Below, piece by piece: positions 2,290-62,600 of a stretch of 64,000 nucleotides of DNA; the first letter of the stretch is position 1; every line of letters starts with the position of its first letter. The notes below the pieces were generated by a model, which saw only the letters and a list, made by a program, of their open reading frames with translations, was not told the origin of the DNA and searched no databases. The stretch comes from Tubulanus polymorphus (Eukaryota > Animalia > Nemertea), in contig NC_134028.1 of assembly GCF_964204645.1 (NCBI RefSeq), positions 11,019,063 through 11,083,062 on the forward strand. The letters run 5' to 3'. The translations under genes and the position numbers were made by a program.

Positions 2290-5134
2290 ATGCCTAAACG
2301 AAAAGAGGTGAGTGATTTTATTTTATAGATTAACTTATATTCTAAAGATTTAAAGAATATTTAGGTTTAAATCTTGTAAATTTGAAGAGAAATTTTACTT
2401 TATTCATTGTTTCGTTTTTCGATTAGTCAACAACAATACAAAAACAAAATAGATTGATTTGAATGTTGTTTATTGTGTCCAGCCTCGTTCAGTTTCAATT
2501 GAAGTCTGTTCAGTAGACAAATAATTGTGTTTTTTCAGCCTCCGTCATCGGCTGCAACAAGTCCAACCGTTACCACAACGACTGACGATGCTGCGTCTGA
2601 ATTAGAACAATTAGCAACAAGTCGAGTGACTCGAAGTGCTACAGCTCATTGTGAGTATCAATTCATGATATATCGCCCTCCACTAGTGATAGCTAATTCA
2701 TATATATCGATATTTGTTGATATTTCTAGATGAGCCTCCGGCGAAATTACCGAGATTTGATGCGATCGATCGACCGTTAGCGATTCTATCTAAATGTCCG
2801 TTACCGGGCTGCGACTCCAGGGGTACGTACTAGAAGCGCCATCTATATATGGTTAATTATAACCAGCTGCGGTGAGTGAGGAATTTAAATCGTGTTTTAC
2901 AGGACACTTTACTGGAATGTACGAACGACATTTTACAATCAGTGGATGTCCACTTTATCATAACATGTCACCTGAGGAATGCAAGGTAACCACAGACATC
3001 TCAAATTAAACCGCTTGAGATATCACGTCTATATCTCATTGTTGTATCGATATTTTAGTTGCTACGGGAACAGAGACTGCAACTGAGGAATCAACGATTG
3101 AAAACTATTAAAGAAATTCAAGACACAAGAATGGGACTGCGTAAACCTGTGAGTGAAACCAGGAGGAGTCGACCTGTATTTGTAGATGTAGATGATGTTT
3201 GTGTAGATGTAGATGATGTTTGTGTAGATGTAGATGATGTTTGTGTAGATGTAGATGATGTTTGTGTAGATGTAGATGATGTTTGTGTAGATGTAGATGA
3301 TGTTTGTGTAGATGTAGATGATGTTTGTGTAGATGTAGATGATGTTTGTGTAGGTGTAGATGATGTTTGTGTAGGTGTAGATGATGTTTGTGTAGATGTA
3401 GATGATGTTTGTGTAGATGTAGATGATGTTTGTGTAGATGTAGATGATGTTTGTGTAGATGTAGATGATGTTTGTGTAGATGTAGATGATGTTTGTGTAG
3501 ATGTAGATGATGTCTGTTTTATTTTGTGTAGAATCCGACTGATAATCAGAAGTCGAAGATACAGCGATATAGAGAATGTCGCCGAAAGAAACCAGATCCA
3601 AGAACTCAGTTTGAAAATAAGAAGAAACGAATCGAACACAAACAGAAATATTCAACGTCGCGGGAACCGTTACTTAACGGTATCACTTCACAGTACGATA
3701 TACAGTTATTCCGTGAAGCTCAACAGAGGGCGCTAGAGGACTCGGTACGTGTATTAATATATCAGTTTGAGCGGTAGCGATGAGATTTGAATTTAAATAT
3801 CGCGATATCGATATTTCAGGGATTTGAGTCGATACAGAATCGATTAGCGAATGATAAACAGGAATATCACATTAAAGGAATTGAGATCGGACGTTATGAG
3901 TTGAATACGTGGTATTCTTCTCCGTATCCTGAGGAATATTCCAGATTAGAACAACTTTATCTCTGTGAATTCTGTCTGAAATACATGAAAACATCTACTA
4001 TACTTCGTAGACATATGGTGAGTACTGACTGACTGGTCGACTAGCCAACTGACTGACTGTTCTACTAGTCAACTTACTGACTGGTCAAACTGACATTCCT
4101 AGTAACTGTGTATTGTATTGTATTGTTGCTAGGCTAAGTGCGTGTGGCGCCACCCACCGGGGGACGAGATTTATCGTAAAGGGTCCATTTCTATGTTTGA
4201 AGTCGATGGAAAACGAAACAAAGTAAGAATTAATTAATTCTCTCAATATTTAATTCCCTCCTTGTATTTAATTCCCTCATGGTGTTTGTTATTTCAGATT
4301 TATTGTCAGAATTTATGTTTATTGGCGAAACTTTTCCTCGATCACAAAACGTTATATTTCGACGTGGAGCCGTTTTTGTTTTATGTTATGACTGATTGTG
4401 ATTCTTACGGATGTCACATTGTTGGATATTTCTCCAAGGTAACGTCAATCATCGCTATATCGGAACGTTTACCTATCGATAGTATGAGTTTTAACGTCGA
4501 GAATATTTCGATATTTTGCAGGAAAAGAAGTCATTTTTAAACTACAATGTATCATGCATTTTAACCCTGCCGCAATACATGAGACAGGGTTATGGTAAAA
4601 TGCTAATCGATTTCAGTAAGTTAACCGTTTAATCACCTACTCATTCTATTGTTATACGTCGCTAGGTTACACCTGATCAATTGATTTATGTCGCTAGGTT
4701 ACCTATTGAGTAAAATAGAAGAGAAGATCGGTTCACCGGAGCGCCCCCTATCTGATCTCGGTTTAATTACGTATCGTAGCTATTGGAAACGGATGCTCGT
4801 GGAATATTTACTGAACTTCAAAGGAAATTCAATCAGTATCAAAGGTAAAAATATCCTCCCTCGCTTACCAGGGCTGCATTATAACTACTAGCGCCATCTA
4901 TTGATTGTATTTATAATTACAGATATAAGCAGCGAGACTGCGATCCATGGTAATGATATAGTCAGTACGTTACAAGCATTAGGAATGTTGAAATACTGGA
5001 AGGGAAAACATCTCGTTCTGAAGAAACAAGAATTGTTCGATGAATATCTGGATAAAAAATCTAAGAATCCGATTGATCCGAATAAAATAGTCGATCCTAA
5101 CTGTTTAAAATGGACCCCTGGAAAGTATCTGTAA
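2290..5134 (+). CDS. KAT7: MYST-family histone acetyltransferase KAT7/HBO1 (multi-exon)
   Basis: Starts MPKRKE followed by a GT donor. Contains a C2HC finger ([27 protein letters not shown]) and MYST motifs ([61 protein letters not shown]). Stop at 5132-5134. Confidence 0.93.
3180..3512. repeat. 21-bp minisatellite (GTAGATGTAGATGATGTTTGT), about 16 copies, in a KAT7 intron
   Basis: Directly visible tandem array; it explains the spurious VDVDDVC / TQTSSTS ORFs. Confidence 0.95.
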
Positions 5135-5467
5135 CCCCCTACAAACTCCCCAACCTTGTGTGTTCAATATTATAAATGTATGTCTACCATAGATGTAGAC
5201 ATTCTCTAATAATACAGTAACTTGTCTATCACAGTTGTAGACATTGTAATATTATTATCTATTAATGGTTTGTTTTTATTTGTTTTAATCTGATTAAAAA
5301 TCGTTTTAAAAATGCATTTGTTTTAATCTCGACTCGGTTTAAACTTTAACCTCTTCCATTATTGAAATACATGTGAAACATTGTTTATGATGATGAAATA
5401 AACTAATTTGTTTATTATGAATAAATTCTTGTTTTTGTATGAAACCTGCAATTGAGGAGCCCCTCGT

Positions 5468-59600: not shown

Positions 59601-62600
59601 TAGTTCCGTCTCCGAACGTAAGGTTTGTTAAAGCCATACACGCGTAACGTCTCATCGTGATGTTATATTGTTCCATCGTGTTCTGGTTGATGTCGTGATC
59701 GACTCTCAGTAATTCAGCTATAGCTTGTAGTCCACCTGTTAAAAACAATATCAAACATATATCATCGATCGGTGAATCACGGGAGTCTGACGCGGTGTAG
59801 GAATTAGTACCGTACCTAGTGTACAGATGGCGTGTCTGTGTTCCTCGTCGAACGATAGTTTCATTAAAGCAGCGATAGCCGGACCGGGATGATGATCTAT
59901 ATCTCCTAAACGTGCTCCTATAATACATACACAAACACATGAGAATGATAATAAAAATACTTGAACTCTAGTCACGGTGCTGCCACTTTTCACCCATTTA
60001 CATATCACCTCAGTTTTCCCAGATTTTTCCATGTTATTACACAAAATTCCCCCTGAGTGAATCAGAGAAATTTCTAGGTTTAAAATGTTACAATTCATTT
60101 ATTTTTCATTTAATAACGTACTGATTAAGAAAAACATGGTCAATAACATTATCAAAATTCCCTGAGTTTTTCTGTGTTTTGCCATAATTTCCTAAGTTTT
60201 CCCTGATTCTTCCTAGATTTTTCTGATTCCCTGCGTTTTCCAGGTCAGTGGCGCCACCCTGATAGATGATGATGATGATGAATACATACCTATATTTGGT
60301 TGTTTGTCCTCATCATCTTCCTCTATATTATCTACTAATTGATCGCAGTGAGCTCTGATCTGTTCTAGCAGACGCAGAACGCGAGCCTCTCGTCGACCTC
60401 GTTTATCATCCGGGTGAGAATGTACGATATTGTGTAACGCAGCCGCCGCCCGAGCTCGAGCCGGTTTACTACCGCGTGTGTTACCTAGCAACCCGGAATC
60501 TTTATCGCTACCGTGCAACAATTGAATCAATAATGGTAGACAACCTAGCAACGAGAAAACAGCAGATTGTTAGGATTGTATATACCTGATTGTCATTGTG
60601 CGAAGGGGGTATGGAGTAAAGGGTATATGGGAGTTAAAGGGGAGTTAAAGGGGAGTTAAAGTGGAGGGTGGTATTTATACCCGATTGTCTCATAGCTATA
60701 CAGCTATCCTGTGAACTGCTCATCGCTAACAGTGTACGACTCATGTCATCTTTATCATGAGTTCCAAGCATCGATAATAAAGAATATACCATTTCAACTT
60801 GCTGTAAATAAACACAAAATAATTAATCAATTAAACATCTTTAATTAATTAAATATCTTGAATCAATAGATTGTACGGTAACGTACCTTGTTAGTACCGA
60901 GTTGTTGGTTGGTGGCGCTAGTAGTCGACGGTGTTCTACGCGATGCAGTAGATACGTTACTAGAATGAAAACTCATCAGACTCGACGTTTCATTACCAAT
61001 AACAGCGGCCATATTACCATCGACAACGCCACCTATAATACATGATCAACACTATACATACAGTATTCATAGACAGACGGACAGACAGACGGACGGACAG
61101 ACAGACGTAGAGTACGGAGGATGAAGTATTACCTTGTTCTATAGATGGAGGCCACGCTCCGTGATACAACGCCGGAATATTCTGATTGTGAAATCCAGTC
61201 GGTTGTTGCATTTCCTCATAGATGGCGCTACAGTCAGTAGTTTGTGTCCCCATACTGGATCCTACGCGAGCGTGATGAGCTGGCATTATCCGCGCGTTAG
61301 GCTGAGGTTCAACTTCAGGTTCGTTCTTCTATAAAACAATCAGAAACCATTATTACAGCTGCTACTGCACATATCTATATCAGTTGCTATAGTAACTGAC
61401 CGTATCTAAGGTAAATGTATTTGTTGCTACGTCACGGAAAACAGTTCCATCTTTCTCCAGTTCGTTGTGATCACATGTTCCCGAATCTCTTTTTTCTGAA
61501 CTTCGCTGCTTTAGAATAAACGTAAGACACGAACTTTAAAATGACGCCACCTCCAACAATCAATCTATATAGAACTAATAGTTACCGCGTGTCCCTCACG
61601 GTGGCGTTGCTGTTGCTGATGAGGTCCATCCAGCGGATAACGCTGCTGCTGCTGTTGTTGGTGCGCTCCGTCCTGTAGGTGGCGCTGTTGTTGAATACGT
61701 ACTATTTCCTGTTCGATCATGTTAAGTCTATAAACTCGAGCTGCGTGACGTGATTGAATCTGTTCGGCCGTTCCAAAATTCTCATGCATCAGAGCACGAA
61801 CTCTCTGAGCCTCGAACTGTAGGTGTTTACGAGTCTGATCCGCCTGCTGTAAATATATATATACACACAACGCCCTCTAGTGAATACATACCGAACTACA
61901 TCTCATATATACACAACGCCCCCTATTGGCGTAACACATACCTTACTATTAAAGGGTAATTGTTCGAGTTGACAGTTGATACCGTAAAGATGCTCGTGGT
62001 ACCACTGTCTCCTCTGTTCTTCATCTTGTACTTCTTGTATTAAACACTGTCTGTAAATATATCAAATAATCAGTAAGTCTGAGTGAGTGAATCTCAGTGA
62101 TATATCGCAGTGAGTGAATCTCAGCGATATATCGCAGTGAGTGAATCTCAGTGATATATCGCAGTGAGTGAATCTCAGCGATATATCGCAGTGAGTGAAT
62201 CTCGGCGATATATCGCAGTGAGTGAATCTCGGCAATATATCGCAGTGAGTGAATCTCAGCGATATATCGCAGTGAGTGAATCTCAGCGATATATCGCAGT
62301 GAGTGAATCTCAGCGATATATCGCAGTGAGTGAATCTCAGCGATATATCGCAGTGAGTGAATCTCAGCGATATATCGCAGTGAGTGAATCTCAGCGATAT
62401 ATCGCAGTGAGTGAATCTCAGCGATATATCGCAGTGAGTGAATCTCAGCGATATATTGCAGTGAGTGAATCTCAGTGATATATCGCAGTGAGTGAATCTC
62501 AGTGATATATCGCAGTGAGTGAATCTCAGTGATATATCTGAATGAGCGAATCTCAGTGATATATCTGAATGAGCGATATATCGTGATATATCGTGATATT

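Follow-up and report, generated by a model that had tools for sequence, protein, structure and literature searches.

The 64-kb window analysed here (Tubulanus polymorphus, contig NC_134028.1; positions count from its first base) is compact animal DNA with 41% GC, 12 genes and introns of mainly 60–100 nt, and a GC-rich motif resembling the binding site of the zinc-finger protein CTCF recurs along its gene bodies. The genes encode a KAT7-type MYST acetyltransferase, a kynurenine-aminotransferase-like (KYAT-like) protein, GPATCH11-like, PEAK1-like, HMG20-like and ZFAND5-like proteins, SMAD4, TFIIA-gamma, a cathepsin L-like protein, MGAT1, a small cysteine-rich membrane protein and APC. All counts refer to this single window, treated as sequence only, unless other loci are named. 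Gene models were corrected by hand; 15 introns are based on RNA contigs, and some uncertainty attaches to one junction of MGAT1 and to the 5′ ends of both APC and the small membrane-protein gene. Eight of ten gene pieces have a Pfam match, and the remaining names are those that seem to fit the protein sequences. The best homologues of APC include annelid and mollusc proteins (84–90% in the ARM region), and FastTree left the window's APC unplaced among lophotrochozoans. Most limits of 3′ untranslated regions (3′ UTRs) were drawn by eye after the motif sites had been seen.

Tandem repeats (8,946 bp) were masked, leaving 55,045 bp for counting, and backgrounds were taken from 200 local 1-kb dinucleotide shuffles and from shuffles that preserve 5-mers. 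The recurrent GC-rich motif of the original prediction is real and stronger than first claimed: YAGRKGGCG occurs 54 times against 1.0 expected from dinucleotide shuffles (maximum 4) and 4.3 from 5-mer-preserving ones. In dinucleotide shuffles AGRKGGCG is expected 2.2 times (maximum 7) and ASYAGRKGGCR 0.3 times, with 66 and 21 observed, and the full consensus CCASYAGRKGGCRS has five exact matches against none. All 15 strings quoted in that prediction lie where it had placed them; four of its five TAGATGGCGC cores are exact, and the one at 7114 reads TAGATGGCGT. A position matrix trained on the window itself finds 88 sites at a cut-off of at least 12 bits, against 1.5 in shuffles, or one CTCF-type match per ~600 bases, and 90 sites at a cut-off of at least 11 bits. 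The 66 unmasked AGRKGGCG words, hereafter core sites, lie on both strands between 2837 and 61924; 13 tandem-repeat copies (three in a KYAT-like intron array, ten of GGCA type in an APC coding repeat) were excluded. The claim that the window is saturated holds for the strong overall enrichment and fails as to evenness, with one core site in 36,001–48,000 and none in the HMG20-like (HMG20A) and small membrane-protein genes.

The matrix consensus, c-c-A-V-Y-A-G-R-K-G-G-C-G-Y-T-R-c, matches CCASYAGRKGGCRS, the human CTCF core consensus as printed in the available part of PMC6746451, at nearly every position, with A tolerated at S, so the likeness to CTCF first proposed stands. The fly CTCF site in the accessible text of PMC3082887 includes ATAGATGGCGCT, the commonest form in the window, and has A at −2. 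A de novo count puts three fragments of the CTCF-type motif at the head of the window's over-represented 8-mers. In a single-base scan the four R-K combinations are each enriched 24- to 38-fold and the other 12 are at background, with 0–2 each. Outside the selected word, coding sites favour the same flanking bases as non-coding ones (C at −4, A at −3 and T at +9, with T nearly missing at −2), whereas columns outside the motif and its upstream module are at background and the copies have no common flanks, so the motif is not a transposon. A purely mutational bias toward the site, one of the options first offered, is unlikely because specificity is sharp at ~10 positions and the upstream module also accompanies weak cores. 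YY1, with its core AANATGGCG, is excluded as the reader of most sites, since only 2 of 22 AGATGGCG cores read AAGATGGCG; YY1 also does not fit the other three core variants. YY1-like AANATGGCG words occur at 21337 (+), 25257 (−) and 34180 (−), in the promoter regions of the HMG20-like, ZFAND5-like and SMAD4/TFIIA-gamma genes.

Gene-body location is borne out: coding exons, short introns and 3′ regions together take 62 of the 66 core sites, more than their length predicts (P=2e-9). Coding exons hold 1.57 core sites per kb (39, against 1.3 sites expected from class-specific shuffles), short introns 2.18 (10 against 0.15), RNA-covered 3′ ends 2.62 (two cores) and putative 3′ UTRs 2.81 (11; 0.3 expected for both 3′ classes). 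Long introns hold 0.25 per kb (2 against 0.18) and 5′/intergenic DNA 0.16 (2 in 12,871 bp against 0.18), one of these two being YY1-like. By the matrix, densities are 3.3 sites per kb in short introns, 2.6–4.1 in 3′ regions and 2.05 in coding exons. What can safely be stated is that exons, short introns and the stretches separating convergent stop codons are filled with sites, and that promoter-side DNA is avoided. Sites are about as frequent in sense as in antisense orientation to transcription (46 and 39, P=0.52), which indicates that the signal is read as DNA. Neighbouring sites in the window follow no orientation rule (−− 24, −+ 16, +− 16, ++ 9). The suggestion that many short introns carry a site is true of some, 11 of 60 by core word and 14 of 60 by matrix; that the motif marks introns fares likewise, since three quarters of short introns lack it and most sites are exonic, many of them kilobases from a splice site.

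Two genes with long exons hold most of the coding sites. The 9-kb APC exon (50671..59735, − strand) has 17 core sites, one of which, at 59367..59374 (+), is spelled by conserved ARM-repeat codons (L-S-A-L-W). The 5′ exons and short introns of APC (59816..62768, −) add cores at 59825, 61034, 61220, 61552, 61677, 61878 and 61924, and its putative 3′ region (49000..50670, −; limits by eye) has cores at 49686, 49750, 49784 and 50614 and GGCA variants at 50471 and 50496. The excluded APC coding repeat, of 11 residues (33 bp), spans 53771–54165 with 10 copies of the GGCA variant. The densest gene, at 3.5 matrix sites per kb, is the PEAK1/pragmin-like one (12883..18234, −), with a 3-kb exon and 14 coding core sites; its last exon lacks a Pfam match. 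It converges on the GPATCH11-like G-patch protein gene (9855..11293, +; intron site 10634–10641), and the RNA-covered overlap of their 3′ ends (11294..11826) holds a site at 11460–11467 with upstream TAGT. A single RNA contig (11156–13713) joins the two genes through these overlapping ends and places a 706-nt intron (11827–12532) in the PEAK1-like 3′ UTR.

A gene of 12 exons (2290..5134, +; hand exon model), which we take to be a KAT7-type MYST acetyltransferase from its Pfam MOZ_SAS match, has core sites in introns (2837–2844, 4892–4899) and exons (3725–3732, 4742–4749). The presumed KYAT-like gene (6701..9292, −; joints from RNA, identity from the protein sequence) has cores in four introns and in one exon (8448–8455, K-A-P-P-A-G). 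One of its introns contains a 105-bp tandem array (7920..8279) in which the acceptor region is duplicated, with one motif per unit (7994, 8099, 8204; uncounted); a similar acceptor-region array lies in a ZFAND5-like intron (27410–27586), and the open reading frame is consistent with the last copy being the one used. The ZFAND5-like gene (26743..27726, +) has a site at 27279–27286 on an acceptor AG; this motif and one at 61027–61034 span intron–exon junctions, the acceptor AG doubling as the motif AG. The 3′ region between the convergent ZFAND5-like and SMAD4 genes (27727..30551; UTR limits by eye) has cores at 28745, 30005, 30405 and 30547, SMAD4 (30552..33853, −) an intron site at 31066–31073, and TFIIA-gamma with the 3′ ends it shares with the convergent cathepsin L-like gene (34565..35970) cores at 35373, 35748, 35913 and 35963. 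The sole strong site in a 5′/promoter region (21028..21035, −) lies between the PEAK1-like first exon and the HMG20-like gene (21654..23827, +), which has no site; a loose RNA-contig end near it maps from 20927 onward.

The motif-poor stretch 36001..48000, comprising the cathepsin L-like gene, MGAT1 and promoter DNA, has one core (42465, in an MGAT1 exon) and clusters of GGCAGCACCGT. This word belongs to a second motif, GGCAGCAC-CGT(ACGG), found in promoter-like and long-intron DNA, mostly where the CTCF-type motif is absent, with seven copies of GGCAGCACCGT; second-motif positions are 36983, 37056, 37155 and 2153 (+) and 39161, 47498, 47672, 47743, 47815 and 59984 (−). The promoter-like 1-kb intron of the cathepsin L-like gene (36676–37540) has three copies and a possible + donor near 37283, and may hold the start of another transcript. 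By eye, AT-rich 45640–46480 looks like an internally duplicated, transposon-like element.

The coding sites are held by codon choice. Within exons there are 37 coding cores, in all six frames, against 2.75–3.03 under three synonymous resampling models (150 runs each, maximum 8), which upholds the suspected synonymous-codon bias toward the site; the 9-kb APC exon has its 17 against 1.9 in synonymous permutations. The encoded peptides allow the core at 152 positions, and the 37 realised compare with 2.86 expected. APC and the PEAK1-like gene contain 33 of the 37, mostly in the 3-kb and 9-kb exons, and the small globular genes alone realise 4 of 33 compatible positions against 0.49 (P=0.001). Real genes offer 152 compatible positions against 82–111 in codon-shuffled genes, so amino-acid choice may be bent toward the motif too. 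A peptide-level proxy on 120 APC homologues gave 28 for the window against 10.0 (2.8-fold), and two homologues (one near Paralvinella, one with Octopus) exceed it at 3.17 and 3.0, which makes the proxy noisy. Among differences between individuals (the 40 of 103 listed, with 3 in a CTG repeat left out), 0 of 37 fall in motif bases, with 1.4 expected. Coding CpG observed/expected is 1.48, and 1.65 at codon 3-1 steps.

Density at the APC locus is 10–16 times that of other animals. Across 34 APC loci of other animals, several of them redundant, there are 27 cores in 221,538 bp (0.12 per kb, roughly double the level in shuffles of these loci) against 27 in 13,801 bp here (1.96 per kb), which supports the proposed lineage specificity. 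The six longest APC frames elsewhere have 1–2 cores against 0.2–1.1 expected, where the window has 17 against 1.9, and by the matrix, which was trained on the window, densities are 0.20 elsewhere and ~1.6 per kb here. Promoter-side DNA here is at the level of other animals, and gene bodies are about ten times higher. CpG observed/expected in APC is 1.57 here against 0.33–1.17 in the 34 other loci. Site 59367 is absent from 8 of 8 distant orthologues among the matches listed; its core is kept in a diverged relative with the same species label, where 0 of 3 degenerate core positions changed against 8 of 14 flanking third positions, in a contig with 16 differences in 116 bases (8 listed). Sequencing runs X7/X8 (59309–59424 and 16786–17439), which bear that label, are ~14% diverged in APC coding DNA and lack any sampled words; their divergence suggests that the label covers a second species.

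Upstream of the core, the sites share T at −20, A/G at −19 and T at −17. TAG at −20 occurs in 14 of 90 sites against 1.5 expected, or in 10 of 79 after a near-duplicate filter that dropped 11 sites which are not true duplicates. The module is present in 7 of 58 weaker cores and in 0 of 254 cores under 3 bits. Some intronic TAGT cases coincide with donor or branch sequence, so TAGT as a mere splice signal is true of these sites; the enrichment persists away from splice signals, in 7 of 25 strong non-coding sites and 4 of 30 weak coding cores (0.11 expected in each). An example is the TAGT at 30022..30025 (−), which lies −20 to −17 from the core A at 30005 and away from splice signals. By hand count, the human IL3 insulator probe, whose sequence is given in the available portion of PMC12885311, has CAGT at the same −20 to −17. 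That portion assigns an upstream module to 13–15% of vertebrate CTCF sites, associates it with enhancer blocking, and describes it as absent in Drosophila and perhaps restricted to vertebrates; its occurrence in a protostome is new. CTCF itself is described as bilaterian-specific in the accessible part of PMC7535936. The core matches CCASYAGRKGGCRS and the module stands at fixed spacing in a minority of sites, as in known CTCF sites. The human spacing is the strongest argument about the reader, which is likely CTCF; of the original wording, 'CTCF or a related zinc-finger protein', the first part is favoured by the module and the second becomes less likely.

It is improbable that the sites are read by a CTCF paralogue confined to this lineage or by some other zinc-finger protein whose core is similar. 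The case for such a reader is that A is the favoured base at position −2 (41 of 90), for which the human consensus gives S, that upstream TAGT is unlike CTGCAG, and that lamprey has its own CTCF2 paralogue (PMC5504073, in the part available). The core nevertheless fits the human consensus at nearly every position, the fly CTCF site (PMC3082887, accessible text) also has A at −2, and the upstream module has the human spacing.

Enrichment, base specificity, gene-body location, strand symmetry, the hold on synonymous codons, the low level in APC loci of other animals and the fixed upstream module are observed features of this DNA. For them we tentatively favour, at somewhat less than even confidence, CTCF-anchored chromatin along gene bodies that is independent of site orientation. 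The two-part motif in gene bodies and codons would be bound by CTCF, with fingers 3–7 reading the core and fingers 9–11 the upstream module, as known CTCF biology would have it; binding alleles would be favoured, and sites gained and kept by weak selection for binding. That the sites are under selection for binding is probable, and the likely role of CTCF here is to coat transcribed genes, not to mark their borders. Bound CTCF would position flanking nucleosomes, as in human cells, where it positions ~20 nucleosomes per site (PMC2453330, available text). With a site every 0.4–0.6 kb, partial occupancy could suffice for ordered chromatin over whole gene bodies, and this order would keep transcription from starting internally, a function commonly attributed to gene-body methylation; in invertebrates, suppression of spurious intragenic starts is ascribed to such methylation in the accessible part of PMC11292947. 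Chromatin anchoring is preferred because human CTCF positions ~20 nucleosomes, the territory is that of gene-body methylation and the exons are CpG-rich; given CTCF as the reader and selection for binding, the chances that it is the selected function are even. The joint proposal is possible but doubtful as a whole: CTCF as a gene-body coating factor, a second code that reshapes codons and amino acids genome-wide and does the chromatin job of gene-body methylation, with a finger 9–11 mode that would be ancestral to bilaterians and lost in flies.

Several observations weigh against gene-body anchoring by CTCF. Window sites show no 140–240 bp periodicity in pair distances and some lie 21 bp apart, which is at odds with an exact nucleosome lattice. 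Density among neighbouring genes ranges from 0 to 3.5 matrix sites per kb, and recounting the putative 3′ UTRs as intergenic would lift the intergenic class to ~0.8 per kb. Away from splice signals, TAGT occurs in 0 of 45 strong coding cores (the looser YRNT in 11 of 45 against 3.4), and the TG that precedes CAGT in vertebrates is not found at window sites. Evidence for conservation comes from a single site in a single contig of low depth (2.35; P ~0.08 by hand). Finally, coding CpG is high, yet 8 of 12 coding transitions among those listed are in CpG context, against 25–32% expected.

Among the rival explanations, the unlikely one that fares best also has CTCF as the reader and places its selected function on RNA polymerase II, slower elongation aiding the splicing of very short introns and transcript ends between packed convergent genes. 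Intragenic CTCF reportedly pauses RNA polymerase II in mammals, as Shukla is said to have found in 2011. The peak of matrix density in short introns and 3′ regions relative to coding DNA fits this account, as does the position of 13 of 18 intronic sites, which are centred 19–37 nt from the donor. That distance was noticed post hoc and is in part dictated by where the donor and branch/acceptor signals fall when introns are ~78 nt long; 46 of 60 short introns lack a site, and the coding sites concentrated in APC and the PEAK1-like gene mostly lie in the 3-kb and 9-kb exons, far from splice sites.

Conversion drive without benefit, which we consider rather unlikely, would let CTCF-bound alleles win gene conversion, for example by being cut less in meiosis and acting as repair template, so that sites pile up in old, stable sequence (exons, short introns, UTRs). 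It accounts for the affinity-like specificity, the strand symmetry, the lack of a spacing pattern, the scarcity in repeat-expanded introns and the bent codons, even the amino acids (152 positions against 82–111), and the high coding CpG, at 1.57 in APC, hints at unusual fixation biases. However, promoter regions are also old and yet nearly empty (2 cores in 12.9 kb). Known motif-linked conversion, at PRDM9 sites, erodes motifs, and no precedent for the drive was found in the literature searched.

Vertebrate-style insulation or loop anchoring, with CTCF and cohesin fencing off each gene of a compact genome, is quite improbable. Sites are dense between convergent genes, and the upstream module is tied to vertebrate enhancer blocking (PMC12885311, available portion). 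But genes are filled rather than bordered, divergent promoters are nearly site-free, and density is ~100 times that of lamprey peaks (27,633 in 1.6 Gb), although motif matches and chromatin immunoprecipitation (ChIP) peaks are different measures. Neither a placement at domain or gene borders nor an orientation rule was found in the window, though a domain may extend beyond 64 kb. That the motif is a mere by-product, whether of base composition, tandem repeats, a dispersed transposon or a bias in codons or peptides, or that it acts at the RNA level, is very improbable and largely refuted: the genome is minisatellite-rich and 13 copies were amplified in this way, but repeats were masked, neither 2- to 5-mer shuffles nor the three synonymous models nor codon shuffles reproduce the signal, falling short by 8- to 50-fold, nothing outside the motif and upstream module is shared between flanks, and both transcript strands are used equally.

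Compared with known systems, the signal is real, lineage-specific and unusually strong, judged from one window and its sequence alone. The openly readable main texts searched reported no invertebrate in which CTCF sites saturate gene bodies or bend codon choice. Spiralian reviews (PMC10658182, PMC10658181) stress how scarce data are. For the role of CTCF outside vertebrates and in their ancestors, an animal whose genes carry a site every 0.6 kb offers an extreme case that separates looping from non-looping functions. Lamprey CTCF sites have been spread by hAT and long terminal repeat elements (27,633 peaks, mostly repeat-linked in the part of PMC5504073 available), and a minority of window copies is likewise tandem-amplified; the 66 counted sites differ in that their flanks are not homologous, and conserved protein codons spell many of them. 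Echinoderms likewise lack an orientation rule, and the accessible parts of the echinoderm and cephalopod studies (PMC13317027, PMC13652810) report modest enrichment at domain borders and no gene-body saturation. The spiralian annelid Dimorphilus gyrociliatus (bioRxiv 10.1101/2020.05.07.078311, in the text available) shares compact genes, a prominent CTCF motif, the absence of a directional arrangement and a proposed non-architectural role. There CTCF is the top open-chromatin motif, mostly single and in promoters; no such promoter pattern was found in the window, where the 12,871 bp of 5′/intergenic DNA are nearly empty and gene bodies filled, and the Dimorphilus counts are of peaks from the assay for transposase-accessible chromatin (ATAC), those here of sequence matches.

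Invertebrate gene-body methylation (PMC11292947, accessible part) occupies the same territory, with a role proposed against spurious intragenic starts. It differs in being a base modification, where the window has a sequence-encoded protein site and CpG-rich exons. In 'duons', which Stergachis is said to have described in 2013, exonic transcription-factor sites constrain codons, and the window shares with them a DNA-binding code laid over codons. Here synonymous choice is bent toward the site of one factor, in a 12-fold excess over synonymous recoding (37 against ~3, and 17 against 1.9 in APC) and in all six frames, which breaks the assumption of neutral synonymous sites in this lineage. The closest likeness is to the vertebrate two-part CTCF site (PMC6746451, PMC5504073 and PMC12885311, in the portions available), which shares the core CCASYAGRKGGCRS, the upstream YAGT at −20 to −17 and a similar module share (14 of 90 here, near the 13–15% of vertebrates). 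The window differs in its far greater density, its placement in exons, short introns and 3′ regions, the absence of an orientation pattern, TAGT in place of CTGCAGT and its protostome host; an upstream module at human spacing in such a host would push two-part CTCF binding back to the protostome–deuterostome ancestor.

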